A stretch of 64,000 nt of DNA, taken from contig CALXUP010000006.1 in assembly GCA_944391715.1 (NCBI GenBank), positions 1,895 through 65,894 of the forward strand, in the 5' to 3' direction. Positions 8,025 through 36,516 of this stretch are shown here, in pieces; the stretch's first letter is position 1, and each line of letters starts with the position of its first letter. Under the pieces are notes generated by a model. That model saw nothing but the letters and a program-made list of their open reading frames with translations. It made no database searches and was not told the origin of the DNA. Position numbers and translations under genes: made by a program. This DNA comes from an uncultured Alphaproteobacteria bacterium. Its GTDB lineage: Bacteria > Pseudomonadota > Alphaproteobacteria > RF32 > CAG-239.

Positions 8025-8071
8025 TTTTCCACACTTGTTTTTATTATAATTTCCCTCTGGTTAAAACTTGA

Positions 8072-8302
8072 TTAATTCCGGCACAGGTCAAGCTGCCTCT
8101 TGAGCTTTTCCAACCGGCCGATCCATTCCCAGGTGTTTTTGAACTTCTCATATTCTGCCTGTTCCAACTCTGTCGCCACCTTGCTGCCTGCCAGCGGGAA
8201 CATCGGGCAGAGTTCAGAGTTGTCCGCGGCGCATGAGCTCAAGCAAAGCATCACGCTCAAGATTAGGCGTTGATGCGATTTTGCGATATTGCGACGAAAC
8301 AT
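8072..8302 (-). CDS. o-spanin (Rz1-like outer-membrane lipoprotein), overlapping the i-spanin gene in another frame
   Basis: 76 aa. Signal peptide MFRRNIAKSHQRLILSVMLCLSSC with lipobox LSSC. Its 5' end overlaps the 3' end of ORF 8214..8420 by ~90 nt in a different frame, the classic Rz/Rz1 arrangement. Confidence 0.5.
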   Translation of the reverse strand: MFRRNIAKSHQRLILSVMLCLSSCAADNSELCPMFPLAGSKVATELEQAEYEKFKNTWEWIGRLEKLKRQLDLCRN

Positions 8303-8420
8303 ATTTTACGACCTCGATTTCTTTGGTTACGGTTTGAACGCGGCAATGACTGCGGCCGAGAAAATAACTCAGCACGCAAGCCGCTATTATGCCGAAAAGG
8401 TTAAAAATATTTCTGCTCAC
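8214..8420 (-). CDS. i-spanin (Rz-like) candidate, GTG start coupled to the upstream gene
   Basis: GTG at 8420-8418 overlaps the TGA of the upstream small gene (GTGA). Product MSRNIFNLFGIIAACVLSYFLGRSH... has an N-terminal TM helix then a charged periplasmic segment. It overlaps the embedded lipoprotein gene. Confidence 0.45.
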   Translation of the reverse strand: MSRNIFNLFGIIAACVLSYFLGRSHCRVQTVTKEIEVVKYVSSQYRKIASTPNLERDALLELMRRGQL

Positions 8421-8554
8421 AGTCCGGCTCCCAGCAATAATAAGAATGCCCGGGCAACGTTTTCGGCATATTGCGGACAGAAAAAAGAAACCGCTGCAAG
8501 CGTCAGGAAAGCGCCCCAAATCATTAGTTTTTTGATATTTTTCAGTCTTTTCAT
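8417..8554 (-). CDS. 45-aa single-TM protein (holin or antiholin candidate), translationally coupled on both sides
   Basis: ATGA overlap with the stop of 8551..8796. Product MKRLKNIKKLMIWGAFLTLAAVSFFCPQYAENVARAFLLLLGAGL. Too short for the ORF track. The first ATG in the ORF-track frame 8214..8519 gives an implausible N-terminus, which supports this frame. Confidence 0.35.
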   Translation of the reverse strand: MKRLKNIKKLMIWGAFLTLAAVSFFCPQYAENVARAFLLLLGAGL

Positions 8555-8796
8555 TTTTTGCCTCTCATTTTATTTTCACGAAAAATCAAATCTAATTTGA
8601 CTTCGATTTTGGTCAGGATTTTGTTTTGTTCGTTAATCGACGTGGTTAAATTCTCCAGGCGGATGTCCTGCTTGTCAAAATTTTGCTCAACCTTGTCGAC
8701 TCTGGTTTCAATATTTCCCTGCCAGCGTCCGATACGGATAAAATTGACAACAACGCCGCACAGTGCCGCCAGTCCGGCAACCAATCCCCAATCCAT
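8551..8796 (-). CDS. phage membrane protein with N-terminal TM helix and coiled-coil region (part of lysis cassette)
   Basis: RBS gaggag + ATG (MDWGLVAGLAALCGVVVNFI...) directly after a terminator hairpin. 81 aa; heptad-like VDKVEQNFDKQDIRLENLTTSINEQNKILTKIEV. Confidence 0.45.
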   Translation of the reverse strand: MDWGLVAGLAALCGVVVNFIRIGRWQGNIETRVDKVEQNFDKQDIRLENLTTSINEQNKILTKIEVKLDLIFRENKMRGKK

Positions 8797-8815
8797 GCTT
8801 TTTCTCCTCAAAAAA

Positions 8816-8834
8816 AGCGGGCTATGCGCCCGCT
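8816..8834 (-). terminator. rho-independent terminator (hairpin + T-run on minus strand)
   Basis: agcgggc-tatg-gcccgct stem-loop, followed on the minus strand by TTTTTTT. It overlaps the last codons of 8822..9202. Confidence 0.5.
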
Positions 8835-9202
8835 TCTCCTTCATTGCTTTCGGAAGTTTCTTCCGGTTTCGGATAGTCATCTTTTACCTTTTTTCTGGCC
8901 AGAAAAAAGGTTGACGTTTTTGCCTCTTCACCAAACAATCCGGCATTTATGTCATGATAGAGCTTATCAAGCTGTTCCGTTACGTCGGGATAGGCCTGTC
9001 GGCGTTCTTCCGCATAGTCATAGGGCTTTTCCGGCTCCTCGCCCTTGAAATACATTTTGCCGTTCCAGGCGGTGATGACTTCTCTTTCCGTCGGCTGTAT
9101 CGAATCCAAAACCAGACCGCAGGCAAAAGCCCCGTCCCGTACGGCTTCGGCATCGCTGCCGGAAAGTTTGATTTCATTATTAATTAATCCGATATAAATC
9201 AT
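8822..9202 (-). CDS. hypothetical phage protein (possibly tail-fibre assembly/chaperone)
   Basis: 126 aa, acidic C-terminus. Sits downstream of the tail fibre genes, the usual Tfa position. No diagnostic motif seen. Confidence 0.35.
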   Translation of the reverse strand: MIYIGLINNEIKLSGSDAEAVRDGAFACGLVLDSIQPTEREVITAWNGKMYFKGEEPEKPYDYAEERRQAYPDVTEQLDKLYHDINAGLFGEEAKTSTFFLARKKVKDDYPKPEETSESNEGEAGA

Positions 9203-9603
9203 TCTTTTTCTCCTAAAGCATATCTAAAAGTAACACTGTTGGCCTGTACACCATTATAAACAAAAACCTGGCCCTTGCCGATGTAGAACATTCCCCTGCC
9301 TGTATCTGCACTTGTTTTGGGAATTCCACTGTTGAAAATGGTATTTGTTCTGGCCGTATCATCATACATCAAAGCCTGTCCATAAACATTTGAACCATCT
9401 TGACCGATTTGGATGTAGCCGTTTGCAGGAGCCTGAAAATTTGCCTGAGGCGCTAAAGATACGGATATCGTTCTGTTACTCGGCGCAACGCCGGACAAGA
9501 GTGTGCTCCGTCCTGTTTCACTGAGATTTGCCAAATCAACATCCGCTTTGTTGTTCAGCGCCTCGAGAACCTGTCCCGGTTCATAATCTACCTGTTCCGA
9601 CAT
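9199..9603 (-). CDS. hypothetical phage tail protein
   Basis: 134 aa. Start overlaps the stop of the tail fibre gene. Gly/Asn/Ser-rich, beta-like composition. Confidence 0.4.
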   Translation of the reverse strand: MSEQVDYEPGQVLEALNNKADVDLANLSETGRSTLLSGVAPSNRTISVSLAPQANFQAPANGYIQIGQDGSNVYGQALMYDDTARTNTIFNSGIPKTSADTGRGMFYIGKGQVFVYNGVQANSVTFRYALGEKE

Positions 9604-11231
9604 TAGTTTTCTCCTTCTGCATAGTAAAATCTGAATCTGTTCAACGTTCCGCCACAGTCATAATAAGCCGTAAAAACATCGTCTTTTTTTACGGCGAGAC
9701 TGACAACTGCATTTGTTGATGCTGTCGGGACACAACAACGATAAGCCGTTTTTCCTTCCAAGCTTACAAACTGATTGGCGGCGTTTGACGTTTTGGATAA
9801 TACGACCCAGCCGTTGGCCGGTGCCGTATAAGACGCTCCGCTGGCCTGCAGCGCTAAATCCGTATATTTTTCGGATGCCATCGGTAATGAAGAAAGTAAG
9901 ACTTTTCCGGCTGCCGATAAATTGCCGCAATCAGAATCCACCTTGTCGTTCAGACTTTCCGCAATCTCTCCGACATCAATCAGATTGTCGTTTTTTATCG
10001 TATTACCGACAAAGAAGTAGAGATACATCTCTACCGCCCGCTGCTGAACCGATGCCCCGTCCTGATAGGCAGAAGAACAACGAGAAGCATCAAATTCAAT
10101 ATTCCCTTGCGAGTTGCTAAATACTTGCAACCCCGTTCCTCCTTGGCCGCTATATGCTTTTTGATAAAATCCTCCTGAAATACGATTCAATGCCGTATAA
10201 TTTGTTGAAAAAGCACCCGTGATGTTTGGCAAACTTTCAGGCACATAAGCTCCAACGTTGTTACGACTGCCGACGAAGCCCCATTTTGTCCGGGGAAGCT
10301 TGAAACGTCCGTTTTCCGTATCCAGAATATAATACCACGCCACACCGGTACTTTCATATAATGCGGCGATATTTTCTGCCTGCTCCGGTGCGCAGATTTT
10401 ATAGCCTTTGGGCGTTTTCTTATAAGTAATTGCAATATTGTCGACGGTATCCGTTGTTTCTGCAGATGCCTCATCGGCATATTGGGAAGCCAATTCATTA
10501 TACGCGGCAAAATATACGCCGCCGTCCTGCCAGCTGAACGTATCCGCCCGCAGCCAGCTTGCCGACTCCGGTTTATGATCAAACCAGGCCGGTTGAAAAA
10601 GTTCATAGCCGACATCGGCATTTTCAGCGGCAACTTTGGCTTCTCCCGCCCAATATTCCGAGCTGCCTTCCGGTTGTTCTTCAATCGTACCGACCGCCCA
10701 TTTTCTGGCAGTTTCTACAAGACCGGCAGCCGTCTCCGCCGAATCAGAAGCATTTAACGCGCTGCTTTCTGCCTGTGCGGCAAATGACGAGGCAGAAACT
10801 GACGAATTCTGAGCATTTTCTGCACTGGCAGCAGCATTTCCGGCGGCAGTTTCGGCTTCGGAAACAATTGTTTCAAGCTGAGGCTTTATTGTTTCGTCAG
10901 CGTATTGCTGCAGTGCCGGTTCGGCCGTGTTCTCGACATAAATATTTATTTCCGCTTTTGCCGTTTCTATATCTTCGGCAGTTTTTTCGGAAATCTTTTC
11001 GATGTTTTTACCGGTATGTTCGGAAACCTCCTGTTTTTTTGTTTGGGTATAGTCATCCAACTCCGGCTTGGCATGGTTATTGACATAAGCCTGAATCTCT
11101 TCTTCACCCGACTTGATATAAAAAAGAGGCACGTTGATATCCAACTGTACCTCTTCCTGGAACAAGACTTCAATCTTCTGTCCGGTTCCGTTAAAAACGG
11201 TAATGCCGTTTTCTTCATTTACAAAACTCAT
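9603..11231 (-). CDS. phage tail fibre protein
   Basis: 542 aa. N-terminal helical repeats (ISEKTAEDIETAKAEINIYVENTAEPALQQYADETIKPQLETIVSEAETAAGNAAASAENAQNS) typical of fibre shafts. C-terminal Gly/Ser/Asn-rich beta region with an LPNITG motif shared with the tail-collar protein. Confidence 0.7.
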   Translation of the reverse strand: MSFVNEENGITVFNGTGQKIEVLFQEEVQLDINVPLFYIKSGEEEIQAYVNNHAKPELDDYTQTKKQEVSEHTGKNIEKISEKTAEDIETAKAEINIYVENTAEPALQQYADETIKPQLETIVSEAETAAGNAAASAENAQNSSVSASSFAAQAESSALNASDSAETAAGLVETARKWAVGTIEEQPEGSSEYWAGEAKVAAENADVGYELFQPAWFDHKPESASWLRADTFSWQDGGVYFAAYNELASQYADEASAETTDTVDNIAITYKKTPKGYKICAPEQAENIAALYESTGVAWYYILDTENGRFKLPRTKWGFVGSRNNVGAYVPESLPNITGAFSTNYTALNRISGGFYQKAYSGQGGTGLQVFSNSQGNIEFDASRCSSAYQDGASVQQRAVEMYLYFFVGNTIKNDNLIDVGEIAESLNDKVDSDCGNLSAAGKVLLSSLPMASEKYTDLALQASGASYTAPANGWVVLSKTSNAANQFVSLEGKTAYRCCVPTASTNAVVSLAVKKDDVFTAYYDCGGTLNRFRFYYAEGEN

Positions 11232-11235: not shown

Positions 11236-11586
11236 TTACTCCGTTACTTCCGGGGTGATACGAAAAACCGCAACCTTGTTTACATCGCCGGGATATACCG
11301 TATGGATATCGCCGGTTTTTAACTTTATCTGGATATCGGTTTTGTAATCACCGGGTGTGATATTGGTATCGGCAGGCAAAAGTTTCAGCCGCACTTTGCC
11401 GCCCGAGACATCAAAAATCTCACCGGACTTGCTAAACAAAACTTTTTCTTCATTATTCCTGACCGTCATTTTAACGGTACAATCCGTCAAATCCCACGGC
11501 TTGTCGTCCGTTCGGAACTGCAGCACGATATCAAAACTGTCGCCTTTGCGAACAATTATCATATTGGGCAAAATCACTCCTGCCAT
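11236..11586 (-). CDS. hypothetical phage tail/baseplate protein
   Basis: 116 aa between the tail-collar and tail-fibre genes. No recognisable motif. Confidence 0.4.
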   Translation of the reverse strand: MAGVILPNMIIVRKGDSFDIVLQFRTDDKPWDLTDCTVKMTVRNNEEKVLFSKSGEIFDVSGGKVRLKLLPADTNITPGDYKTDIQIKLKTGDIHTVYPGDVNKVAVFRITPEVTE

Positions 11587-11587: not shown

Positions 11588-12382
11588 TTAGTCCTCCTTT
11601 GCTTTAATAAAGTAGTTTACGGCCTGGTTAACCGGCGTAACATGGCCCGATTTGCCGTAAATCGCAGAAGAGCGCGCGGCATCAAAAGACACTGGTACGC
11701 GTCCGGTGCCATCCCAACCACCACCGGCGCTGAACTGGATTTTATTATTGACGCCGGAATCAATCTTCAATGCTCCGGAATAAGCATCCGGTCCACCATC
11801 CCATTTGGCCTGAGCCAGCTGTGCCGAACCGGTAATATTCGGCAGACCTTCTTCCTGCGTGGTATAAACGTCTTCGGCAGAATTACCGCCCAAACCGCGC
11901 AGAAACTTGCCGCGATAATCCGGAATATTAAAAGTCGTCACGCCGTCACCGGCACCGAAATTTGTTCCGACAAGCTCAAACAAGTCGGCATAATCCGTCC
12001 GGCTGACGGCCTGTCCGTCGCATAAAAGCCAGTTTCCGTGATTGGCCGTCTGCAAAGAGGCTTTGATATCGCCTAAGTTCATATTATCGTTCAGGATATC
12101 TTTGATTTCCGTTTTCAGCTCATCGAGCTTGTCCAGCACCTGTTTGCGGTTGACGGCATCATAATCCAGTGCGCCGTTGGCCAGGTTTTTTATTTGAAAA
12201 TTGCCGGCGTCGATATTACCGCGCATTGCAACGCGACCGTCTCGCAAAAAGGTCTGCGACAACCCTTCGGCAAGGTTATTGTCTTCTTCATCATGGTGGT
12301 CGGTTACAATATCAATGTCATTTATCCGGTCGTCTTCCCAACTGTGAATCCGGGTAAAATTTCCTTCACTGTCAAAAGGCAT
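11588..12382 (-). CDS. phage tail-collar-domain protein (short tail fibre-like)
   Basis: 264 aa. Contains the Phage_tail_collar-type motif LLCDGQAVSRTDYADLFELVGTNFGAGDGVTTFNIPDYRGKFLRG. GLPNITG motif. Confidence 0.75.
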   Translation of the reverse strand: MPFDSEGNFTRIHSWEDDRINDIDIVTDHHDEEDNNLAEGLSQTFLRDGRVAMRGNIDAGNFQIKNLANGALDYDAVNRKQVLDKLDELKTEIKDILNDNMNLGDIKASLQTANHGNWLLCDGQAVSRTDYADLFELVGTNFGAGDGVTTFNIPDYRGKFLRGLGGNSAEDVYTTQEEGLPNITGSAQLAQAKWDGGPDAYSGALKIDSGVNNKIQFSAGGGWDGTGRVPVSFDAARSSAIYGKSGHVTPVNQAVNYFIKAKED

Positions 12383-12450: not shown

Positions 12451-13323
12451 TTAAGCTGCGGCCAGAGCATAGTTGACGTGCAGCAAGCCATATTCGTCCT
12501 GCATAACGGCTTCCGGGCGGTATTCCGCGACCTCTTGCGCAATCAGCCCGATTTGCGGAATATCTTCACCGATATAGTTGAACAAATATACGGTCAGGCC
12601 GTTATCCAATCTGCCGACCGGAATGATGTTTTCCTTCACTCTGGCATCAGAGAACATTGCCATGGCCGCTCCGCTCAGAAACTGATTACCCAGGGCATAT
12701 TGACCTGCCGAATTTGCAGCTTTGTTCTGAGCAATGCGAGAATCTGCCCCGAACTGGGCTTGATATTTTGCCAGGGCAACATCATCGCCGCTCATTGAAT
12801 TGGATATTAACTGCAAAATTTCGTTTACCGGATACTGCCGGGCGGCATTTGAGAAATTTCCGGCCCGAATAGAATCCGACAAGCTGTTGCTAAAAGCCTG
12901 TTGTCCTTGTAAAACGCTGTTATAAGCAGCCTGGTTCAGAGCATCATTCTGTTGCTGATACATTGAGTTCATGGCATTTTGATAAGCTTCGCTGCCTACG
13001 CTTAAGCCCTGATTTTGCAGACGGGTTTCCAGTTGGCGTTGCTGTTGCTCAAATTGCGGCGTCAACCTGCTGACATATGAATTATATGTTGCATTTTCTG
13101 CCCGCTGCCGGGCCGCATCCGAAGCATCTACCGAATAAACATAATCCGGCCGGCTGCTCAGCGTCTGCGATAAATTGTAGGCGCTTTGGTTCAAATTGTT
13201 GAGTGTATTGTCAACCAAAGACGTGTCTTTATTATTGAGATAATTCAGGTATTCCCGTTCGGAAGCGTACATCGACGTGCTGGCGCCGCCGCCCCCGAGC
13301 AGTTTTCCGATGCTTTTACTCAT
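12451..13323 (-). CDS. coiled-coil tail-needle/fibre-like protein with C-terminal peptidase S74 intramolecular chaperone domain
   Basis: 290 aa. Residues ~20-220 are Q/N/S-rich alpha-helical (coiled-coil-like). The C-terminus SDARVKENIIPVGRLDNGLTVYLFNYIGEDIPQIGLIAQEVAEYRPEAVMQDEYGLLHVNYALA matches the S74 auto-cleaving chaperone domain (SDxRxKxNI...GxIAQEV). The start has an in-frame TAA immediately upstream and a GGAG RBS. Confidence 0.7.
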   Translation of the reverse strand: MSKSIGKLLGGGGASTSMYASEREYLNYLNNKDTSLVDNTLNNLNQSAYNLSQTLSSRPDYVYSVDASDAARQRAENATYNSYVSRLTPQFEQQQRQLETRLQNQGLSVGSEAYQNAMNSMYQQQNDALNQAAYNSVLQGQQAFSNSLSDSIRAGNFSNAARQYPVNEILQLISNSMSGDDVALAKYQAQFGADSRIAQNKAANSAGQYALGNQFLSGAAMAMFSDARVKENIIPVGRLDNGLTVYLFNYIGEDIPQIGLIAQEVAEYRPEAVMQDEYGLLHVNYALAAA

Positions 13324-13385
13324 TTATTTTCTCCTTTTATGATTTATTAAAATTATGGCGCCGGATTGCCGGCATAAAAAAAGAG
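13290..13385. repeat. copy A of a ~95 bp promoter/RBS/5'-coding module (MSKSIGKLLGG)
   Basis: Near-identical (about 3 mismatches) to 15319-15415. Includes the ccggcaatccggcgcc hairpin, RBS ggagaaaataa and the first 11 codons. Confidence 0.6.
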
Positions 13386-13429
13386 GAAAGATAAACATCT
13401 TTCCTCTATGAAATCAAACCTATGTTCTG

Positions 13430-13726
13430 TTATTTTACTTCTTTATCACTGAAAACGGCAAGCGGTTTTAAGATTATTGTCAGCGGGATGACAAACAGAA
13501 ATGCCGTTTCTATACTATACGGAATAAGCAGAAAACGGGGATCGTATATATAGACGATTAAAAACGGCGTCGTTAAAATGGTCAGCGTTTTGTACAGCCT
13601 GGCCGAATCTGAAATAAAATATTGAAAAATCCGCTGCAGCATAAATATCAGCAACGTTGCTTCAAATAAAAAACTAATCAGCAGCCCAAAGCTCCAAAAA
13701 CTTGCTATTTCTTTAATTATCTGCAT
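13430..13726 (-). CDS. small 3-TM membrane protein (holin candidate)
   Basis: ~98 aa from MQIIKEIASFWSFGLLISFLFEATLLIFML...; three hydrophobic segments. AT-rich. Lies between the GH108 muramidase gene and the needle gene. Confidence 0.4.
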   Translation of the reverse strand: MQIIKEIASFWSFGLLISFLFEATLLIFMLQRIFQYFISDSARLYKTLTILTTPFLIVYIYDPRFLLIPYSIETAFLFVIPLTIILKPLAVFSDKEVK

Positions 13727-14104
13727 TTTTATCACTCTTTTTGTTGGCCGTAAAACGGAACATACTCGGAACAACCGCACCAACCACCCCGTACAAAAAA
13801 CCAAAAGAAAAAGTCGGGCTTAGGCAGCCGAAGATTATACCGCAGGTCAGTAATGAAAAAATGTTTGCTCAGACTTCCGGATTTTTTAATTTATACCGTT
13901 TTAAAATGTTCTGAAATATATGTACTAACAGTAATACCCAGATTATCCAGTGAATAATTGATGGCATGATTATCCCCTATTGCACTCATATTATTTCCTT
14001 ATAAAAATTTAATATCCAAACTATTATGACATTTGCATTTAATTAAACTTTTGCTGTTATTACATTAGAATAGTAGATTTTAGCAAGTTAATTTGAGGAT
14101 AAAA

Positions 14105-14554
14105 ATGAACAAAAATATCTTGCGTATTTTAGCGGTGTTACTTCTTCTTAATTGTTGTAACATGCAAGAAGAGAACAAAATTTTAAGTTACGGTGAAAAG
14201 CAAGCCGCTCAGATTAGTTTTCAATGTTGGGAAAAAGCTTTTGAAAACAATCCGACATCTACGACTGGCAATATTTCGGCTGGAATAAAAGCAAATGAGT
14301 GTATGGATCAACAGATATACCAGCTTCTTGATTCCGAATTTACTCAGGAAACGCAAGCAGCCATGACGGCAAGATATAATGCAATTCGTCAGCAGATTCT
14401 TGATTTTTATTGGGATTTAAGAAATGACAACAAATATTGCATTCCGTCTTGTGGCACAATGCAACAAATATTTAATCGCGGTGATTGGTTCAAATTTCAA
14501 GAAAAAATATTAGGTGCCTTGCTTGATTTACAAAAAAACCAAGATGCGTTCTAG
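14105..14554 (+). CDS. secreted/lipoprotein-like Cys-containing helical protein (possible DUF1311/LprI-like lysozyme-inhibitor fold; speculative)
   Basis: RBS gaggat; signal-like N-terminus MNKNILRILAVLLLLNCC. Six Cys. Opposite strand to all neighbouring phage genes. AT-rich. Confidence 0.45.
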   Translation: MNKNILRILAVLLLLNCCNMQEENKILSYGEKQAAQISFQCWEKAFENNPTSTTGNISAGIKANECMDQQIYQLLDSEFTQETQAAMTARYNAIRQQILDFYWDLRNDNKYCIPSCGTMQQIFNRGDWFKFQEKILGALLDLQKNQDAF

Positions 14555-14601
14555 ATAAAAAATTACTTCAAACGCATCTTGTATTAACTTTTTGATAAGC
14601 T

Positions 14602-15351: not shown

Positions 15352-15415
15352 TTATTTTCTCCTTTTATGATTTGTTAAAATTATGGCGCCGGATTACCAG
15401 CATAAAAAAAGAGGA
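15319..15415. repeat. copy B of the ~95 bp promoter/RBS/5'-coding module (MSKSIGKLLGG)
   Basis: See copy A (13290-13385). Confidence 0.6.
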
Positions 15416-18640: not shown

Positions 18641-18644
18641 ATTA

Positions 18645-29474: not shown

Positions 29475-29480
29475 GAAGTT

Positions 29481-29575
29481 TCTCCTTATCTTGTTTGGGG
29501 TTATAAAAAAATCCCGCCGGGAAAATTGCACAGCGGGATAAGCAAAAGTATTGAAGCTATTTTTCGGGAGCTTTA
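29481..29575. repeat. direct repeat D1 (copy of the terminase-downstream terminator+RBS region)
   Basis: ~95 bp nearly identical to 30906-30999: tctccttatcttgtttggggttataaaaaaatcccgccgggaaaattgcacagcgggataagcaaaagtattgaagctattttt. Confidence 0.6.
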
Positions 29576-29599
29576 CATAAACGGCGGACAATAAGCTGT

Positions 29600-30094
29600 T
29601 TAATGCTCATTTTCTGCCAAAATAATCATTATTATAAAGGCCAGCAAAGGCAGGCTTAGTACCAGACTTCCCATTCCGGCATTATATAATATGTTCCAAG
29701 TAACAGAAATTTGATTACTGATTGTTTTCATCATCAAAATGGCATAATAAGCAATCAGCCAAAGCAGATATTCAACGACCATAAAACGGCCGGTTTTTGA
29801 GATTTTCCAGAGTTTCGTTCCGATCTCCCGCAACAGCCAATATAACGGTATTGCCAAAAGGTAAATTCCGAAAACGGCACCGGCCGTTAGGCGGCAAGGC
29901 ACTCCGAGCCAATACCAATTGAACCAGCTTTGAAAGTTTATTTTTCCGACTATATCATCTTGCTGCCATAGGTATATGTCACATTGTGCTCCTTGCGTAT
30001 TATGGTTGATTACAACAGCGCCAATGCAAAAGATCAGACTTAAACAGACCATACTGGCAAAGATATATAAAAATTTTGGCCAAACACGAAACAT
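29600..30094 (-). CDS. 4-TM membrane protein, AT-rich moron
   Basis: 164 aa, very hydrophobic, AT-rich codon usage unlike the surrounding phage genes. Confidence 0.5.
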   Translation of the reverse strand: MFRVWPKFLYIFASMVCLSLIFCIGAVVINHNTQGAQCDIYLWQQDDIVGKINFQSWFNWYWLGVPCRLTAGAVFGIYLLAIPLYWLLREIGTKLWKISKTGRFMVVEYLLWLIAYYAILMMKTISNQISVTWNILYNAGMGSLVLSLPLLAFIIMIILAENEH

Positions 30095-30282
30095 TATTTT
30101 TGCTTTTTGTTATAAATATTATGACTTTCCTTAGAACTTTCTTTTCCTTTATTTACCATTATAATATTTTCCATATTTATTAAAATATTGTAACTTTATA
30201 AAAGGATGGTTGCTTTTATTATTTGACACTAAATTTAAAGTTTTTTATTATTAAGTACAAGATATAAAAGACGGGTTCTTCC

Positions 30283-30867
30283 ATGTTAAGTGTATTAAAA
30301 GACGCTATTGTTTTATTTCTGAGAAAAATAGACATTTTTATTGTATTTATTACACCGGTATTTTTAATAAATATTTTTCTCTTGCCCTCATCGATAAAAA
30401 TCCTGCTTAATGCCTTTGCTTATTGTATAACGTCTTTAAGTATATATCTTTATCTTTTGCATAACGATCTTTGTTTACGCTTTTTCTCTTTTCGGTTGTT
30501 TTTCTCTTATTTTTTGGCAGATTCTGCCATTGCCGCCGGTTATTTTATTTTGGTTTTTATTATTCAATTAATACCAATTTCCACAATCTGGCAGGTTTTA
30601 TGCGTCTATCTGCTAGGCTTATATTTTCTATGTCGCTTAAGTTTAATTCCGGCCTTGATTGCCGCTCAAAAAACGATATCGATACAAGATATTTTATTCA
30701 AAAACAAAAACAGTTATTTTCAATGGATGTCAGCGGCCACGGTTCTCTATCTTCCGTTTTTTCTGAGCAGGGTATTTATTCCTGAGGGAATTTCTCTTGC
30801 TTTTATAACATCATTACAAACTCCACTTTTATGTTGTTTTTATGTTTGTTATCTTAAAAAGCATTAA
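30283..30867 (+). CDS. polytopic membrane protein, AT-rich moron (divergent from 29600..30094)
   Basis: 194 aa, 5-6 TM, on the strand opposite the phage operon. Shares a 190 bp AT-rich intergenic region with its divergent partner. Confidence 0.5.
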   Translation: MLSVLKDAIVLFLRKIDIFIVFITPVFLINIFLLPSSIKILLNAFAYCITSLSIYLYLLHNDLCLRFFSFRLFFSYFLADSAIAAGYFILVFIIQLIPISTIWQVLCVYLLGLYFLCRLSLIPALIAAQKTISIQDILFKNKNSYFQWMSAATVLYLPFFLSRVFIPEGISLAFITSLQTPLLCCFYVCYLKKH

Positions 30868-30905
30868 TTAATTCCATATACTGTTTCATTTTGTGCATTT
30901 CCTTT

Positions 30906-30999
30906 CTCCTTATCTTGTTTGGGGTTATAAAAAAAATCCCGCCGGGAAATTGCACAGCGGGATAAGCAAAAGTATTGAAGCTATTTTTTGAGGGTTTTA
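30906..30999. repeat. direct repeat D2 (native terminator + RBS region immediately 3' of terL)
   Basis: Contains the hairpin atcccgctg..cggcgggat + T-run and RBS aaggagaaagg. See D1. Confidence 0.6.
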
Positions 31000-32346
31000 C
31001 CAGCCGGAATTATCTTTTTCACCAGCGGCGAGGGCAAACATTTCTTCTATTGAGACCTTGCCGTTGCCGTATAATTTCGGTTCACCGCAATCATAAACCG
31101 GTTCGGCAAAGGTTAATGCCAAAGCATCTCCTTTGTCCGGAGAGCGTCCAAGACGCTTTTTGACCTCATCTTTTTCTTCCATTTGCAACCTTCCTTTCCG
31201 GTCATATTTCTTATTGACCGCAGTTAAATCGTTAAACAGTTCTTCATCTTCGGGAAGCTGGACTGGCGGCTGAGATTTGAGCCACTGATTGACGCTGTCC
31301 CACATTTCGGCGCGCCGGTTGAAATAACGCTCTTCGTTAATTGCTTTTTCGCCAAAATAAATCCCGCGGATAATCTCCCCAAAACCGCGGTCTTTTAAAA
31401 TGTCATATACGCCGGCGCCCTGCCCACCGATATCCATAAAAATCCGGTACGGGCGGCATTCTTTGATAAAACGGGTTGCCAGATTGGCCACACCGACGTT
31501 GTCTTGTTTATAATAACTCTCAAAGCGGTAACACCACCGGCCTTTGCGAAAGCAAAAAGAAGTTGCGTCATCGCCGAATCTGGCAATATCCAATCCGATA
31601 ATCAGCGGCGAGGTACTCCCGTTCATTTTGGCTTCAAAAGCCCGGCGGACGTCGGTTCCGGAAATCAGCCTGGTATTGCTCTGCACGATCGGGGCGCCGA
31701 GCCAGATATGCGCATAGTCATCGGGTGAGTTTTTCCGGCATTTTTCGGCCTGATATTTGATTTCTTCCGGACAAAACGGGTTATCGTAATAATTGACGCA
31801 GCGGACAAGCGTTCTTTCATCGGGATTGGCGGCAACGGCCATCCACAAAGGATCGTTTTCTTCTTCACGGTTCATGGAAATCCAGATTTCGGAACCGTCT
31901 TTGCGAATCGTCGGCTCCAAAATCTCCCAGCTTTTTTTGCTGATGGTTTGCGCCTCTTCAATCCAGGCAATGTCCACACCTTCCAGGGATTTTATTTTCT
32001 GGCTGTCCTGATCGCGCAGGCCTTTGAAGATAAACTTTGTGCCGGTGATTGTGTTTTCTATTTTGGTTTCATAAATTTTATAATCGCCCAGAGAATAAAA
32101 AGAAATCCGGTCGCACAGAAGTTTGTGGACCGAATCTTTGATTGATTCCTGAATCTCCCTCAGGCAGGCGATAAAAAGCTTTTTCTGCCGCCCCAAAAAC
32201 AGCAGGCTGTCGGCAAAAGCATAAGATTTTCCGCCGGCACGTCCGCCGTAATAAAACTTAATCCGCTTTTTCTCGGTCATCAGCGGCGCAAACACCCGGG
32301 CCATCTCGGCACATTTGGTCTTGGGTTTGGCGTTTGTTTTTCTCAT
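30997..32346 (-). CDS. terL: terminase large subunit (PBSX/Terminase_3-like)
   Basis: 449 aa. Walker A-like YYGGRAGGKSYAFA, then GVDIAWIEEAQ (Walker B/coupling) and a nuclease C-terminus. The true start may be an internal Met (32304 or 32280) overlapping terS. Confidence 0.85.
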   Translation of the reverse strand: MRKTNAKPKTKCAEMARVFAPLMTEKKRIKFYYGGRAGGKSYAFADSLLFLGRQKKLFIACLREIQESIKDSVHKLLCDRISFYSLGDYKIYETKIENTITGTKFIFKGLRDQDSQKIKSLEGVDIAWIEEAQTISKKSWEILEPTIRKDGSEIWISMNREEENDPLWMAVAANPDERTLVRCVNYYDNPFCPEEIKYQAEKCRKNSPDDYAHIWLGAPIVQSNTRLISGTDVRRAFEAKMNGSTSPLIIGLDIARFGDDATSFCFRKGRWCYRFESYYKQDNVGVANLATRFIKECRPYRIFMDIGGQGAGVYDILKDRGFGEIIRGIYFGEKAINEERYFNRRAEMWDSVNQWLKSQPPVQLPEDEELFNDLTAVNKKYDRKGRLQMEEKDEVKKRLGRSPDKGDALALTFAEPVYDCGEPKLYGNGKVSIEEMFALAAGEKDNSGW

Positions 32347-32563
32347 ATCTTTCCTCTAAATTATCTACAAATTTTACCAATATCCGGGCAATGTCCGGTT
32401 CTTCTTCCGTTTTTTTGTTTTCGGCATAGAGGCCGGCAAGCTTGCCTTTTAACTCTATGGCCTTGAGCATGGAAGTCAGCTGTCCGGCTTCGCGCGCCAG
32501 AAAGATTACCTCGTCGAGTTCGGCAAAACTGTCTTCCCGGGCATAAGTTTTTCTTTTGGGCAT
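32258..32563 (-). CDS. terS: terminase small subunit candidate
   Basis: ~101 aa from MPKRKTYAREDSF.... Overlaps the terL start. Helical, basic N-terminus. Confidence 0.45.
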   Translation of the reverse strand: MPKRKTYAREDSFAELDEVIFLAREAGQLTSMLKAIELKGKLAGLYAENKKTEEEPDIARILVKFVDNLEERYEKNKRQTQDQMCRDGPGVCAADDREKAD

Positions 32564-32769: not shown

Positions 32770-33063
32770 TTATTTTATCCAGATATCCCGGGAGAGCAAA
32801 TCGGTGTGCAGGCGGGTCAGATTTTCTTTGAGCCGGTTGTTGTCATTTGCCTGCAACAGCTCGAGAGTCAGTAATGTCTCCCGACTGACGCTCAGGCAGC
32901 GGGTTAAAAGTTTTTCGGTCAGGCATAAGGTGATATAAGCTTTTTGAGCCTGAGGCAGATGTCGGGCGGCATTTTTCATATCGTTAATCAGTTCTTGCAG
33001 GCCACGGCGGATTTCTTCGGGTTTTCTGCCCGAGTGTTTTTCTTTAACAGCAGTCTTCGTCAT
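32770..33063 (-). CDS. hypothetical phage protein
   Basis: 97 aa, helical. No motif. Confidence 0.35.
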   Translation of the reverse strand: MTKTAVKEKHSGRKPEEIRRGLQELINDMKNAARHLPQAQKAYITLCLTEKLLTRCLSVSRETLLTLELLQANDNNRLKENLTRLHTDLLSRDIWIK

Positions 33064-33162
33064 TTGTCAGTCCTTATTATGAATTGTTTGACATGATATT
33101 AATTTCATATCAAACAAAAGAGAAGACGCTATTTTTATATAATGCACGACCATTATATATTT

Positions 33163-33181
33163 TGGGGAGGGGCTCCCTCCC
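33163..33181. terminator. bidirectional terminator-like hairpin
   Basis: ggggaggg-gctc-cctcccc perfect stem. Confidence 0.4.
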
Positions 33182-33189
33182 CTGAGATA

Positions 33190-33870
33190 TTATTTAAGTT
33201 TCTTTTTAATTGTCAGTGCATCTTCATTTATTTTATATCTAATTTTTTCTAATGCTTGTTTTATATTGTCTGCAGCAACTTTTCTCCATATATTTGTTTC
33301 ATTATACCCCCAATACATTGCAATAAAGTCGGAATTTACAACATTTTCTGTATATTTAGCAATTAACTCCTTTTTATTGTTCCATATTTCTACCTGTACT
33401 TCTAGGGATTGTGTTATTTCATTTACCGGAAAGCCTAAAATGTTAATTGTAAATAAGGAGAGCATAGAGGGTAATATATAAAAAATTGAGGTATCATTTC
33501 CCCGATACCCTAATTTCAGTGCAACATATCCCTTTTTCTCTCCATAAGGTGAAGAAATATTCTCTTTTACTTCTTTTTCAAAAATGTTTATAACATCGTT
33601 GACTCGTGCATCTTTATAAGACGTTCCATTTACTACGGTTGTTTGTGCCCATCCGGCCCAAGGATTTGCTCCGTATCCTGTACCATAATTATTAGCAATA
33701 CCTTGATAGCCCCCTGATGAATATACAGATTCTAAATTATTCATATCTACAACAGTGATTAACGCTGGCAATAAATTACTATTTGGTTTAATTTCTGGAT
33801 TAACATCATTATAACTTATTGATTTGCAAGCAGTTAGCATTATAAAAGATATTAGTAAAAACTTTTTCAT
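33190..33870 (-). CDS. lipoprotein, AT-rich moron
   Basis: RBS caggagaat + ATG. MKKFLLISFIMLTACKS with lipobox LTAC. ~226 aa, N/Y/G-rich. Confidence 0.6.
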   Translation of the reverse strand: MKKFLLISFIMLTACKSISYNDVNPEIKPNSNLLPALITVVDMNNLESVYSSGGYQGIANNYGTGYGANPWAGWAQTTVVNGTSYKDARVNDVINIFEKEVKENISSPYGEKKGYVALKLGYRGNDTSIFYILPSMLSLFTINILGFPVNEITQSLEVQVEIWNNKKELIAKYTENVVNSDFIAMYWGYNETNIWRKVAADNIKQALEKIRYKINEDALTIKKKLK

Positions 33871-34146
33871 AATATTCTCCTGACAAATTAACAAAAAACC
33901 ACCTTGATGAGAGGTGGCAGGAAGTTGAAAGCTATTTTCAGGAAATAGTGTAGTATATTTGTTAGATATAACGTATTTTACTACCTTCCTGCCATAAGGC
34001 AAAAAGGTAGTTTTTACATCTGCTCATGCAGAAAACCTGAAAAGGGGCTTTCAAACCCCGCATTGGTAATCAACCAATGCAAAAACTAAGCTATGCGAAA
34101 TGCCCCCGGAAGTCAAATAAAAAATGTTTTATAAAAATAGATATAA

Positions 34147-34767
34147 TTAAACTGCTTTGTTTTTTTCTTTTTTGCGGCGAAGGTAGTGTTCTATCAGGCG
34201 GTCGAGGCCGCGGCACAGGTCAACCTTGGCGGCATAAGTCCGATAGGCCTGCTGGCGTTTGCTTTCGCCGTTATCATTATCAAAAAGCTCTTTATCCTCA
34301 ATGCACACGCGTCTGACGCTGGGCCAAAATTCGTGCGGGATACTCATCATGGCCTGCTGATAACGGGTGCGCGCGTCCAATACATTGTCCAGCAAAGTGA
34401 AATCGCCGCAAATTTCCGGCGTTATTTTTCCCAGCTCAACGGCCTTGCAATCCGAAAACTGAGAAAGACGAAAATCCCGATGCAGCCGTTCCGCCACCCG
34501 AATCCGGTCTTCCGCCGTATACCGCTTGTCGCCCATATCAAGCCAGCCGGCATCCGCATAACGATATAAAACGCCGCCGCGGCCGGAAACCGGCTGTCGA
34601 CAGACGACATCACCGGCCTGAGGTTCCGATATTTGGAGTTTGGCTGCTCGTAGTTTTTTTCCAAGGCCTTTTTTCGACACTGAAACGGTTATGGCGTAAT
34701 TATGCGCCGGATTTTCTGACGGAAAATTATCATTATCAGCGGAACGCCATCCTAAAATCTTTGGCAT
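34147..34767 (-). CDS. hypothetical early-region protein, divergent from the repressor gene
   Basis: 206 aa, normal GC. No recombinase or Cro-like motif. Confidence 0.45.
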   Translation of the reverse strand: MPKILGWRSADNDNFPSENPAHNYAITVSVSKKGLGKKLRAAKLQISEPQAGDVVCRQPVSGRGGVLYRYADAGWLDMGDKRYTAEDRIRVAERLHRDFRLSQFSDCKAVELGKITPEICGDFTLLDNVLDARTRYQQAMMSIPHEFWPSVRRVCIEDKELFDNDNGESKRQQAYRTYAAKVDLCRGLDRLIEHYLRRKKEKNKAV

Positions 34768-34782
34768 TGTGCCCTCCTTGTT

Positions 34783-34809
34783 TAATAGAATAATATTCTT
34801 TAATAGAAT
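34783..34809. promoter_or_regulatory. putative repressor operator sites in the divergent promoter region
   Basis: aatagaataatattctttaatagaatt contains the palindrome agaataatattct (34786-34798) and a repeated TAATAGAAT half-site. A further tcaagaataataaa lies downstream. Confidence 0.45.
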
Positions 34810-34900
34810 TGAAAGTCAAGAATAATAAAATCTTATCCAGAATATTTTTTACTCTTGAAATTTATTCTTTTATTGAATATACTGTCAGCAGGAGAAAAAA

Positions 34901-35536
34901 ATGAACAATATTAAAAATCTGCGCAAAATGCATCATAAAACCGTTACACAGCTTGCCGAGGCCGTTGGCGTTACCCAATCGACCATGACCAAAATCGAGA
35001 ACGGCAATATTTCCCTCAAAAGCGAAATGGCACAAAAAATTGCCGATTTGTTCGGTACAACGCTTGATAATGTCGTAAAATCCGAATTCGGACAGGTTTC
35101 GCCCTATGCATTCAGTCCGGCGGGCGTTTCGATGATTGAAATTATTGACGCGCGGGAATCCGTTGCCGAAAACAGTAATATCCTGACGCCGAAAGTTATC
35201 GGGCATCAGCTAGCAAATATTAATCTTTTTCCTCAACTTAAAAACATATCCCCCGATAAAATAAAGATTTTATCAATTTACGGAGACAGTATGCAGCCGA
35301 CAATCAATGACCAGGACGTTATCTGGGTGGATATCTCGGTTACCTCTCCGGAAAGCGACGGGCTTTATCTTTTCTGCATCCGGCAAGAGCTGCTGGTTAA
35401 GCGCATTCGCTTTGATATTTTTAACAATTCCGCGCTGATTTCTTCCGATAATCCGCTTTATCCGCCGCTGTCAGTCAATAATCCGGATCAGATAAAGGTG
35501 TGTGGAAAAGTAATTGCAGTTACGAAATTTATGTAA
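34901..35536 (+). CDS. cI: CI-like phage repressor (HTH_XRE N-terminus + S24 LexA-type peptidase C-terminus)
   Basis: 211 aa. The HTH region MNNIKNLRKMHHKTVTQLAEAVGVTQSTMTKIENGNISLKSEMAQKIADLFG is HTH_XRE-like. C-terminal S24 domain with a Ser in GDSMQPTI and a Lys in LVKRI. Confidence 0.8.
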   Translation: MNNIKNLRKMHHKTVTQLAEAVGVTQSTMTKIENGNISLKSEMAQKIADLFGTTLDNVVKSEFGQVSPYAFSPAGVSMIEIIDARESVAENSNILTPKVIGHQLANINLFPQLKNISPDKIKILSIYGDSMQPTINDQDVIWVDISVTSPESDGLYLFCIRQELLVKRIRFDIFNNSALISSDNPLYPPLSVNNPDQIKVCGKVIAVTKFM

Positions 35537-35551
35537 TGCATTAATTTAATA

Positions 35552-35797
35552 TTATATCTTTTTGTTATTAGATAAATTTCTTTTAGTGCAGAGATAAGTG
35601 CGGTGTTCATTGATCAAGCCGTCGCGCTCGTAGAAATGCACATATTCTTCCAACACGCCCAAAGACAGCAATCGCTTGATATAACACATAAAATTTCCCT
35701 GCCCGCGGAAACGGCTGCGGCGATAGGCTTGCTCAAAAGTGCGTTTTTGCCGGAAAAGGCGGCAGACTTCCTGTTCGGTTTTAGTCAGCGTTATCAT
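35552..35797 (-). CDS. hypothetical small early protein
   Basis: ~81 aa from MITLTKTEQEVCRLF... An upstream 48-aa ORF (35790-35935) overlaps it. Confidence 0.3.
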   Translation of the reverse strand: MITLTKTEQEVCRLFRQKRTFEQAYRRSRFRGQGNFMCYIKRLLSLGVLEEYVHFYERDGLINEHRTYLCTKRNLSNNKKI

Positions 35798-35913
35798 CGT
35801 TTTTCTCCGGTTTGGGCGGGTTATTGTCGTTATCGGCCCGAAGCACTGAACGGCGCGGCAGGAGATGCGGTCCGAAAATGCGCTCAAAGCTTTGCAGCTG
35901 CAATTTCAACAAA

Positions 35914-36162
35914 TCAAGTTCTTTCATTTTGCAAATCCTCTTCTATCCGGCTGGTGTAATATTGAATGGTCTGAAGCGATAAAAAGGGTTTGATGTCGAT
36001 TTCGTTATAAAAAACGTGGCGGATATATACTTCCCTGCTGCCGGAGAATTTCAGGAAATCAATTTCAACAGGAATTTCCGACGTCGTCTCAGAAGAAATT
36101 TTCAGGCGGCTCAGCAATTCTTTGTCCTGTTTATTGAACTGATATATATTCCAAATTTTCAT
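35914..36162 (-). CDS. hypothetical small early protein
   Basis: 82 aa; stop overlaps the next small ORF (ATGA). Confidence 0.3.
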   Translation of the reverse strand: MKIWNIYQFNKQDKELLSRLKISSETTSEIPVEIDFLKFSGSREVYIRHVFYNEIDIKPFLSLQTIQYYTSRIEEDLQNERT

Positions 36163-36516
36163 TTTCCCCTCTGGCTTTCTCTGGAATAAATCTATTCTTT
36201 AAAAGAATAATAGTCAAATACTTTACAAAAGATATAAACAGCTTTTCCGGCGCTTTCTGAGTGATAATTTTTGATAATAAAATGTAAGAAAAGCCGTCAA
36301 AGCGATACGGCAAAGGAGAGGACGCAGGGAAAGCGGGAGATGCCAAGCAACAGGGAAACAGGACTTATTATCTTTTGCCGAAAGCAGATTGCAGCGCCCA
36401 AAGCCAGAGTTTTTACGACCGGTGATTTTAGTGCAGGAAAGAAAAGCGGTTATTGCGTTCGGGGAAAGATGTTTAAAAACAAAAAAGCCTTGATTAACAT
36501 CAAGGTCTTTCAAAAG

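Follow-up and report, generated by a model that had tools for sequence, protein, structure and literature searches.

The 64,000-nucleotide stretch of contig CALXUP010000006.1 (assembly GCA_944391715.1) from an uncultured gut alphaproteobacterium, hereafter the window, contains a cluster of phage-type genes that extends from position 8072 to approximately 36217, with nearly all of its genes on the minus strand. Taking together its gene content, distribution and pattern of conservation, we propose that this element is a domesticated, non-self-propagating particle producer of the gene transfer agent (GTA)/PBSX kind, triggered by the SOS response, derived from an Mx8-like temperate podovirus and inherited with the chromosome; judging from the sequence, we would assign this reading a probability of roughly 0.6. 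In other words, the cluster is most likely a GTA-like producer of particles that is kept by its host. The original prediction had listed such a state as one of several options, and it now draws support from the gene absences that run through the whole family of related elements, the stable positions of the elements within clades, the occupation of the same locus in a sister species, the presence of a DUF6456 protein and a small terminase subunit (TerS) devoid of its helix-turn-helix (HTH).

The element encodes the constituents of a phage-like particle, namely head, packaging, tail and lysis genes, and the reading frames of its core genes are all intact in the window. What it lacks are genes for propagating itself. 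Searches of its open reading frames (ORFs) against Pfam and PHROGs recovered no integrase, excisionase, transposase or replication family, and a six-frame Pfam scan of 32800–36520 and 5600–6710 at E<=1 returned only HTH_3/S24 and DUF6456 domains and a host DUF2934 domain. Likewise, an exact-repeat search for copies of at least 11 nt of the tRNA-Leu or of the flank found nothing elsewhere in the window other than AT-rich chance matches. Two earlier statements, that no recombinase, excisionase or replication initiator is visible and that the tRNA-Leu 3' end is not repeated at the far boundary, are therefore borne out, with neither a match nor a remnant in these scans. The element boundaries given at that time (8050–36516) were also about right: the last gene ends at 8072 on the left, the outermost feature on the right is an operator and promoter at 36189–36217, and the host tRNA-Leu begins at 36517. 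As this tRNA has its own terminator, a hairpin at 36488–36505 picked up in a terminator scan, there is no hint of a reconstituted tRNA 3' end.

Comparison with related genomes, which had been suggested as a check, extends the absence to the entire family. We searched 134 family loci plus the window (2.26 Mb) by tblastn with all annotated proteins of Myxococcus phage Mx8 and Bradyrhizobium phage ppBjS10J-1: the integrase, replication initiator, DnaC-like, ERF, YqaJ and NinB proteins had homologues in none of the 134 loci, and the same search recovered the capsid in 113 loci, the portal (Mx8 p45) in 101, the hub in 103 and p54 in 100. This search with the proteins of relatives replaced regular-expression screens for tyrosine and serine recombinase motifs, which were blank even in positive controls and were discarded. 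Most of the family loci comprise 10 kb on either side of the capsid gene, and it is for the window and these loci that the lack of self-propagation genes holds, a recombinase supplied in trans falling outside this scope. The ORFs that adjoin the elements, Pfam-scanned in part, include an M23 peptidase, DUF5131, Tlde1/YkuD, an ELM1-like protein and a GH24 lysozyme, and further flanking ORFs were read by eye as housekeeping-type genes (pheT, ileS, hisS, murD, ctrA, uvrD, trkH and tolQRA); by this combination of Pfam and inspection, none of the ORFs directly outside the repressor or the lysis end is recombinase-like. Further, no conserved ORF of no assigned function outside the structural module is larger than about 110 amino acids (aa), and no circular or terminally redundant contig occurs among the whole-contig loci. 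In one locus, L129, there are a few extra early genes, by our reading for an adenine methylase and for a DUF2312 protein, and still no integrase; the DUF2312 protein of ppBjS10J-1 matches two sister loci of L129.

The family itself is widespread. A genome scan with the capsid protein as query and one genome per GTDB species placed relatives in 161 stretches at 67–100% identity, which puts the family in no fewer than 161 species-level genomes. Of the 80 records retained, 79 bear titles of uncultured (alpha)proteobacterial metagenome-assembled genomes (MAGs), and the remaining one, L022, is titled Bacteroidaceae bacterium; the titles of the 79 name Alphaproteobacteria, proteobacterium, Pseudomonadota, Azospirillum (e.g., 'Azospirillum sp. 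51_20') and Rhodospirillales, and the MAGs come from human, primate, deer, yak and goat guts. Synteny based on tblastn reveals a core conserved in 58–80 loci, which comprises terL, a GroES-like gene, portal, a 72-aa gene, scaffold, capsid, g203, tail, hub, GNAT, an S74 protein, a Collar fibre, a BppU-like protein, the N-terminus of a fibre and two distal genes of the lysis region. The compact form of the element, approximately 17 kb in length, consists of the repressor, the DUF6456 gene, a small ORF, terS, this core and a lysozyme. At 28.5 kb, the copy in the window is longer owing to some 11 kb of low-GC insertions that separate its core genes; most species of the family are without these cassettes. 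In one clade (L058, L074, L076, L080 and L083) the blocks follow the order GroES-portal, fibres-lysis, terS-terL and head plus tail genes; gene content is kept in these five loci and order is not, and the arrangement is not a circular permutation of the usual one. We found no description of this family in the literature searched.

Several observations indicate that the element is maintained by its hosts. The ratio of nonsynonymous to synonymous substitution rates (dN/dS; Nei–Gojobori) lies at 0.01–0.25 for 13 core genes and the DUF6456 gene over 11 species pairs, pointing to purifying selection. The core genes of the window have a GC content of 48.2%, 52.9% at third codon positions, and a codon usage that correlates with that of the flanking host genes at r=0.965; the corresponding values for the cassettes are 35.1% GC and r=0.69. 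No empty site was seen: the element is adjacent in 5 of 5 long right-side contigs with the exact GalE of the window, and in 10 of 10 left-side contigs among the matches listed with the exact TPR-methyltransferase. The sister species L168 and L170 carry the element at the same tRNA-Leu/GalE junction; in L168 the identities to the window are 71% for GalE, 90% for CysS and 65% for the MBL hydrolase in the flanks, and 92% for terL, 75% for the capsid, 69% for the portal, 50% for the repressor and 56% for the DUF6456 protein in the element. Over 92 locus pairs with shared flank gene families, flank and core identity are correlated (r=0.65), the core often being the more conserved, and in a neighbour-joining tree of portal, capsid and hub each flank type forms its own clade. 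Flanks shared on one side only (M23 peptidase and ABC transporter) recur in distant clades, a pattern that rearrangements of the host chromosome to one side of an ancient insertion would produce. Because its core genes are intact, under purifying selection and recurrent in at least 161 species-level genomes, the element is not the decaying prophage that had earlier been considered.

The particle genes, given here in the order in which they would be transcribed, point to the ancestry of the element:

32258–32560, minus strand: small terminase (terS) homologue, 101 aa, overlapping the start of terL
30997–32346, minus strand: terL, large terminase subunit (Terminase_3 2.5e-34; phrog_3717 2e-50)
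29214–29474, minus strand: GroES-like co-chaperonin, 86 aa (Cpn10 2.4e-11; phrog_3188)
27302–29221, minus strand: portal (phrog_12082 1.5e-119)
24778–24996, minus strand: 72-aa head-module protein, a conserved core gene
23832–24785, minus strand: scaffold candidate, judged from its location, its sequence features and its conservation among related loci
22806–23801, minus strand: major capsid protein (phrog_9953 3e-99)
22161–22772, minus strand: conserved 203-aa virion-module protein, homologue of Mx8 p50
17415–18128, minus strand: tail adaptor-like protein (phrog_6013 5e-35), homologue of Mx8 p51
15881 to about 17440/17632, minus strand: tail hub-like protein, 520–580 aa (phrog_5107 4e-84), homologue of Mx8 p52
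15448–15867, minus strand: GNAT acetyltransferase (phrog_4470 7e-29; Acetyltransf_4)
14602–15351, minus strand: GH108 endolysin (Glyco_hydro_108 4.7e-10; phrog_315 8e-20)
12451–13323, minus strand: virion protein with a C-terminal S74 chaperone domain, homologue of Mx8 p54
11588–12382, minus strand: Collar-domain fibre (Pfam/PHROGs)
11236–11586, minus strand: BppU_N-like protein (Pfam/PHROGs)
9603–11231, minus strand: 542-aa fibre, of which the N-terminus alone is conserved (26% coverage)
9199–9603 and 8822–9202, minus strand: two small proteins, probable fibre accessories
8551–8880, minus strand: membrane and coiled-coil protein, likely holin or spanin component
8072–8302, minus strand: lipobox lipoprotein, likely holin or spanin component

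The structural, packaging and lysis gene set that had been read from the sequence is thus confirmed, for the most part by Pfam and PHROGs matches; the scaffold, terS and spanin-like genes (8072–8880), which have no match in these two collections, are identified by position, sequence features and conservation. However, the accompanying description of the prophage as P22-like does not survive: Pfam and PHROGs give no P22 family, the structural module is Mx8-like and the similarity to P22 is confined to the general short-tailed layout. In tblastn against GenBank phages the capsid is closest to those of Mx8 (46%) and ppBjS10J-1 (45%), then Mx9 and Stenotrophomonas phage BUCT555, with more distant relatives in Ruegeria, Rhizobium and Brucella phages; no P22-like phage appears among the 25 listed of the 56 capsid-matching phage records, nor in the organism summary of all 56. 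A sequence search of the PDB with capsid and portal gave nothing useful. The capsid is 46% identical to Mx8 p48, the portal and hub about 30% to their counterparts, and the structural PHROGs are of the Mx8 type (9953, 12082, 5107, 6013 and 6121). Further, the order of the Mx8 genes is shared: terL, portal, p46, p47, capsid p48, p49, p50, tail p51, 'amidase' p52, acyltransferase p53 and structural p54. Hence, the module of the element (terL, portal, x, scaffold, capsid, x, x, tail, hub, GNAT, p54) is collinear with those of Mx8 and ppBjS10J-1, and includes the GNAT gene as a conserved member, likewise present in Mx8 (p53) and the Bradyrhizobium phage.

Unlike the element, both of these relatives are intact temperate phages, with genomes of 44.6–49.5 kb: in Mx8 an integrase, a replication initiator and a DnaC-like protein are annotated; ppBjS10J-1 has ERF/YqaJ/NinB recombination genes and, beside a winged-helix gene, a 425-aa ORF that is a probable integrase by our reading and hypothetical in its record; and methylases occur in both. 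Conversely, they are without the GroES-like gene, the DUF6456 gene and the terL type of the gut family. Of the makings of an Mx8-like temperate phage, the element accordingly has the structural module and is without the integration and replication modules. IMG/VR holds further members of the family at 59–73% capsid identity, and below 49% a distinct tier made up of Mx8-like phages whose terL is of another type. Within the family, terL has a median identity of 74% across 64 loci, and the GroES-like gene is a core gene between terL and portal, present in 67–69 loci and with no match in the Mx8-like loci. The distal genes at 8072–9603 are conserved in 25–43 loci and correspond to PHROGs of no assigned function (phrog_8886/1787); other species carry at the far end either a GH24 protein or a 140–146-aa ORF, which resembles SleB-type cell-wall hydrolases when its sequence is read by eye.

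The packaging genes of the window show a feature of their own. Most clades of the family possess a TerS of the GP3_package type, 134–189 aa in length, with which the TerS of the window aligns only over the C-terminal half; tblastn with the TerS of other lineages against the window likewise returns the C-terminal half alone (E 0.003 and 5e-5). The N-terminal 60–70 residues, which contain an HTH-like segment in the other clades, are absent, and tblastn detects no remnant of them upstream. A TerS without its HTH half points to packaging that may be independent of sequence. As some lineages have the full-length protein and others the form without the HTH, the family provides a natural series for studying the loss of packaging specificity.

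At the opposite end from the lysis genes lies a region with the makings of a switch:

36517–36602, minus strand: host tRNA-Leu(caa), by ARAGORN the sole tRNA of the window; right-hand host boundary
35552–36217, minus strand: small operon with ORFs of 82, about 48 and about 81 aa and a sigma-70-like promoter at 36217–36189
34901–35536, plus strand: CI/LexA-type repressor (Pfam HTH_3, N-terminal, 1.1e-11; Peptidase_S24, C-terminal, 1.9e-14; phrog_4 6e-36)
34778–34890, no strand: divergent control region with operators at 34795–34809 and 34864–34878 and a weaker copy at 34778–34791
34147–34767, minus strand: DUF6456 (GafA-type) protein, the first gene of the leftward unit (Pfam PF20057)

The palindrome ATTCTWTWWWAGAAT occurs at 34795, 34864 and 36194, with 0.44 copies expected by chance, and all three copies fall within promoters that rank among the region's best of the sigma-70-like type: the first lies in the leftward promoter (34819..34790), the second in that of the repressor itself (34855..34883), and the third (36194–36208) in that of the side operon (36217–36189). 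Together with the HTH_3 and S24 matches, these three sites substantiate the CI-type repressor with palindromic operators reported earlier. Homologues of the repressor stand at the same position in 35 related loci. The three small genes of the side operon, which have no family match in Pfam or PHROGs, are called in contigs of the same species and of the sister species.

With 30.5 bits against a cut-off of 26.3 (E 4.4e-7), the DUF6456 protein matches PF20057, a match that the six-frame scan recovered as well, and its homologues in protein databases carry a precomputed DUF6456 domain; homologues of the gene are found at the same position in 24–26 related loci. In the literature searched DUF6456 is mentioned only in two papers on GTAs, and according to both it is the annotation given to GafA, which directly activates the Rhodobacter gene transfer agent (RcGTA), as well as to the homologues of GafA. 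From the position of the gene and by analogy with the role of GafA in Rhodobacter, we infer that the DUF6456 protein is the activator of the late genes. A homologue search with it reached ten close relatives with no named GafA protein among them, and a local hidden Markov model (HMM) of the DUF6456 proteins of the family had no matches in roseophage RDJL Phi 1 (first 50 kb), Mx8, ppBjS10J-1 or the Mx8-like IMG/VR loci; the link to GafA therefore stands on the Pfam domain and the literature. An AlphaFold2 model from an 11-sequence alignment reached a mean confidence (pLDDT) of 40 and was not used.

Other clades swap the DUF6456 gene for a small protein, c8, whose C-terminal segment resembles the HTH of sigma-factor region 4 by eye and which has no family match in Pfam or NCBIfam, or for DUF7415 and DUF6362 proteins with a short HTH repressor. 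The latter was observed in L023, L025, L064 and L065 (about 2.2–4.7 kb in each), where the CI/DUF6456 pair is replaced by a 136-aa HTH_3 repressor, a DUF7415-like protein and a DUF6362 protein (2.4e-21); DUF6362 is not mentioned in the literature searched. In L021 an ORF at 2624–3313, read by eye as ctrA (an OmpR-type response regulator), directly adjoins the repressor end; given the control of RcGTA by CtrA, this may be a coincidence or a lead.

We envisage the following mode of action. In the resting state the repressor would bind the three operators observed at the leftward, its own and the side-operon promoters. Upon DNA damage, RecA would stimulate its self-cleavage, as is suggested by the family to which its S24 domain belongs. 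The DUF6456 protein, product of the first leftward gene, might then activate the long late unit comprising terS, terL, the GroES-like gene, portal, scaffold, capsid, tail, fibres and lysis genes. The terminase would fill the heads with DNA of the unexcised and unamplified chromosome, and finally the GH108 lysin with the membrane and lipoprotein genes would lyse the producing cell. Such a circuit would follow the logic of PBSX and would resemble control by GafA.

Two scaffolds labelled 'Bacteriophage sp.' from Mexican human faeces, L089 (MT835830) and L165 (MT837095), bear on the packaging step. They match the family member L042 at 99.5–100% and abut each other, so as to form one contiguous piece, at least 30 kb in length, of an 'Azospirillum sp. 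51_20'-type chromosome. The piece spans the host ruvAB-tolQRA flank (at least 11 kb of host DNA in the joined scaffolds), the repressor and DUF6456 genes and the late operon in full, one of the two records being mostly host genes. As the scaffolds run from host genes into the element, the element is still joined to host DNA in them. They probably derive from a study of DNase-treated virus-like particles; if their DNA was encapsidated, the element was packaged while joined to the chromosome.

Between the core genes of the window lie approximately 11 kb of low-GC cassettes, at 13.4–15.3, 18.4–22.2, 25.1–27.1, 29.6–30.9 and 33.2–34.0 kb:

13292–15416, no strand: lysis cassette with the GH108 endolysin and two small ORFs, between 97-nt direct repeats (13292–13388 and 15320–15416)
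18425–22159, minus strand: eight small paralogous membrane proteins and a 274-aa Gln/Pro-rich protein (21335–22159), about 28% GC, strain-variable and not core
25096–25977, minus strand: cassette with a 293-aa membrane protein, at a highly strain-variable site
26339–27055, minus strand: low-GC secreted protein, 238 aa, flanked by 62-nt repeats (26230–26291 and 27166–27227)
29600–30867, no single strand: two multi-pass membrane proteins of 164 aa (minus) and 194 aa (plus), between 98-nt direct repeats (29479–29576 and 30903–31000)
33190–34002, minus strand: lipoprotein-like protein, 270 aa (226 aa from an internal ATG), in a low-GC cassette

Three of the cassettes are bracketed by direct repeats of 62–98 nt, 79–95% identical, that copy the local terminator and ribosome-binding site (RBS) region, which looks like exchange by recombination at conserved intergenic sequences. 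The 97-nt repeats duplicate the RBS and the first 11 codons (MSKSIGKLLGG) of the next core gene, and it is for this reason that the GH108 lysin and the S74 protein both start with MSKSIGKLLGG. The array of membrane proteins (18425–21270) comprises two or three paralogous families, with the N-termini MKTKKEQKKEGEVVVQTTAFSRFYNFIN... and MKERIQNFIRV..., and upstream regions that are repeats of 69–142 nt; its copy number differs among strains with identical capsid proteins. Neither these proteins nor the 274-aa protein has a Pfam or PADLOC match, and PHROGs, run on the 274-aa protein only, gave none; an immunity, exclusion or holin-like function of the array proteins might be asked of them. The protein at 33190–34002 has no family match in Pfam, PHROGs or PADLOC, is represented by variants of 216–229 aa in other strains and is absent from other species. 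Overall, the cassettes have no Pfam or PADLOC match other than the GH108 lysin. In other species terL directly adjoins the GroES-like gene, without the cassette at 29.6–30.9 kb.

Strains with an identical capsid protein hold different cassettes at the same sites. In the species of the window (L001–L008, L090–L094 and L109) variable cargo occupies fixed sites: a Phage_Mu_F protein (287 aa), or a protein with a VgrG3-like C-terminal domain and its 168-aa partner, at the terL/GroES-like site; 426-aa, 245-aa and DUF5662 proteins at the site after the portal; and an alternative five-gene set in place of the GH108 set. Elsewhere in the family, toxin-like or wall-active cargo lies by the lysis or the repressor end (L018, 19404–20201; L036, 1826–2569; L049, 18957–20183; L033, 18934–19815), including a Tlde1/YkuD L,D-transpeptidase-like protein as well as Gln-rich relatives of the window's 274-aa protein. 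A 408-aa cargo protein has a lysozyme-like segment by eye, and Pfam gave no match for it. The cluster is thus a hot spot, too, for accessory genes of the membrane, lysis and toxin-like kinds.

The immediate setting offers some further observations. Directly outside the left end (6705–8024) is a gene for a protein with TPR and SAM-methyltransferase domains, which matches the PADLOC model mad2 (7.7e-17) through the generic methyltransferase domain only and is absent from the loci of all other species; it could be either lineage-specific host DNA or old cargo. Many contigs of the same species (L095–L099 and L106–L109) stop no more than about 200 nt from the tRNA-Leu or some 700 nt past the methyltransferase gene, i.e., at the boundaries of the element, and there may be population heterogeneity or repeats at these points. 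tRNA genes are found in various positions relative to other copies: a tRNA-Met lies inside the element of L017 (4734–4808), with the DUF6456 gene on one side and terL on the other, whereas in three other species (L024, L069 and L085) it is found immediately beyond the repressor end; a tRNA-Thr adjoins the repressor end in five species; and a tRNA-Asp lies about 2 kb past the lysis end in six species, behind the M23 peptidase gene. The loci listed for these observations are L017; L024, L069 and L085; and L031, L051–54 and L067. The intact relative ppBjS10J-1 is integrated at a tRNA-Asp. A DNA search at near identity gave one weak match in phages and none in Escherichia coli genomes, and an NCBIfam scan of ten element proteins gave no matches.

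Against the proposal of a domesticated particle producer stand several points. The traits that define GTAs are that DNA is packaged at random and that the head has too little room for the cluster encoding it, and for both the element is at most a candidate. Since the capsid is 46–50% identical over its full length to those of phages with genomes of 40–50 kb, the head may hold the whole element of 17–28 kb and its flanks, and the second of these traits may fail. Other lineages of the family retain a full-length TerS of the GP3_package type. Homologues of GafA occur in genuine roseophages too, and hence DUF6456 alone does not prove domestication. The two faecal scaffolds might represent contamination by host DNA. 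An integrase may act in trans from elsewhere in the genome, beyond the loci examined. A tRNA lies no more than 2 kb from the repressor end in three types of site (Leu, Thr and Met), which hints at past integrase-mediated insertions. Finally, one genome has two divergent copies (L011 and L017), a pattern more typical of prophages.

Of the competing explanations, the one that fares best is that the element makes killer particles akin to PBSX, whose DNA-filled heads would kill competing strains by means of tail and fibres and would not serve to deliver DNA. The architecture of PBSX, with a repressor, a dedicated activator, a late operon and lysis genes and no integration or replication genes, is indeed that of the element; turnover is rapid in the lysis cassettes and in the genes for fibres and receptor binding, with conservation of the 542-aa fibre confined to its N-terminus, as strain-level antagonism would lead one to expect; and toxin-like cargo such as Tlde1/YkuD and the VgrG3-like C-terminal domain (L006) would fit. 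However, the terminase, portal and capsid, which are not needed for pure killing, are under purifying selection as strong as that on the tail. The sequence holds nothing that separates killing from DNA delivery, and we regard this explanation as unlikely.

Slightly less likely still is a selfish element that transduces itself: a head of 40–50 kb would be filled in situ by a headful mechanism from near terS, and the element would spread within a species by homologous recombination of the co-packaged flanks, in which case neither an integrase nor replication is needed. The full-length capsid and the scaffold resemble those of phages of 40–50 kb, the compact element is only about 17 kb, and the faecal scaffolds join the element to its long host flank. 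Moreover, the element appears to be fixed in the species, and the swapping of cassettes between strains implies frequent recombination across it. Nevertheless, without amplification there would be at most a few element-containing headfuls per chromosome, the TerS of the window lineage lacks the part expected to recognize a pac site, and plain vertical descent would account just as well for the clade-specific positions and for divergence in step with the flanks.

An autonomous temperate phage, with integration and replication functions that have gone unrecognized (e.g., a novel recombinase in small ORFs) or are supplied in trans, appears improbable, a little more so than the self-transducing element. 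The tRNA genes beside the repressor end, the two divergent copies in one genome, the occurrence of family members in IMG/VR and virome records and the several small conserved ORFs with no assigned function would be in line with it. However, these ORFs are too small, at about 110 aa or less, for any known recombinase or initiator; the 134 loci yielded no integration or replication homologue, and the window neither a remnant nor an att repeat; circular or terminally redundant contigs are wanting, and positions are stable across species. The five-locus clade with reshuffled order, too, is not explicable as a circular permutation of a phage genome.

The remaining suggestions can be dealt with briefly. 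A helper-dependent element or satellite, as the original prediction also considered, finds no support and is rejected because a complete virion and lysis set is encoded. Capsid-forming phage-inducible chromosomal islands (cf-PICIs) have integrase, alpA and primase-replicase genes and a capsid module with no tail genes; this assignment was rejected, as the element has no integrase or pri-rep gene, while tail, fibre and lysis genes are present. An inert cryptic prophage, serving as a landing pad for cassettes while its particle genes head for decay, could account for the strain-variable cassettes between the core genes and is nonetheless strongly disfavoured, to the point of being very improbable, by an intact core under the purifying selection described above in at least 161 species, most of them without these cassettes; retention for the sake of such morons, another of the original suggestions, is at most a side effect, as it is the particle genes themselves that selection has preserved.

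We thus return to the domesticated producer of particles. In a more specific and tentative form, to which we would give rather less than even odds, the element would belong to a previously unrecognized family of GTAs that arose when a short-tailed phage of the Mx8-like type was independently domesticated. Such a family would be present in nearly all uncultured Alphaproteobacteria of human and ruminant guts; DNA damage would switch it on by way of the LexA-like repressor and the GafA-type activator, and it would carry host DNA from cell to cell. Only a handful of GTA lineages are known. If true, the family would represent a second GTA type within Alphaproteobacteria, GafA-type control would predate and extend beyond the RcGTA lineage, and phage particle genes would have been domesticated more often than has been assumed. 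The tie between a GafA-type regulator and a particle other than that of RcGTA would further offer a handle on how such regulators are recruited, and the gut lineage concerned, which has no cultured model, would gain a candidate means by which genes are exchanged or strains killed.

Among known systems, RcGTA of Rhodobacter capsulatus and CcGTA of Caulobacter resemble the element in being alphaproteobacterial, chromosomal, without integrase and replication genes and conserved in many species under purifying selection. RcGTA-type GTAs have GafA and GafYZ as activators, and RcGTA shares with the element a dedicated activator with a DUF6456 domain (GafA). RcGTA has also lost the DNA-binding part of its TerS, a known GTA trait, as has the window lineage. 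However, its siphovirus-type head-tail cluster (g1–g15) is unrelated to the Mx8-like short-tailed module of the element, and searches of the window against Pfam and PHROGs gave no match to RcGTA-type families, the DUF6456 regulator domain alone being held in common. Further, RcGTA is under the control of CtrA and quorum sensing, whereas the element has a phage-style CI/LexA repressor with operators and all of its genes in one locus. PBSX of Bacillus subtilis has the repressor Xre, the positive factor Xpf and a late operon; the element resembles it in its repressor, dedicated positive factor, single late operon from terminase to lysis, lack of self-propagation and conservation in the lineage, and differs from its contractile tail, Gram-positive host, unrelated proteins and sigma-like activator (Xpf versus DUF6456). 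PBSX packages host fragments of 13.4 kb and acts in a tailocin-like manner (PMC12946183). FpGTA of Faecalibacterium, reported in 2026 as the gut's first GTA-like element and the first with podovirus-like morphology (PMC12946183), is encoded by operons of 10.5 kb and 5.5 kb, packages 8.4–8.9 kb of DNA at random in experiments and has a TerS with no obvious DNA-binding domain (PMC12946183). It likewise comes from a human gut commensal, is a candidate GTA with podovirus-like particles and is near-ubiquitous in its genus (PMC12946183); the element is set apart from it, by description, in its alphaproteobacterial as opposed to Firmicutes host, its single locus and its CI/GafA-type switch.

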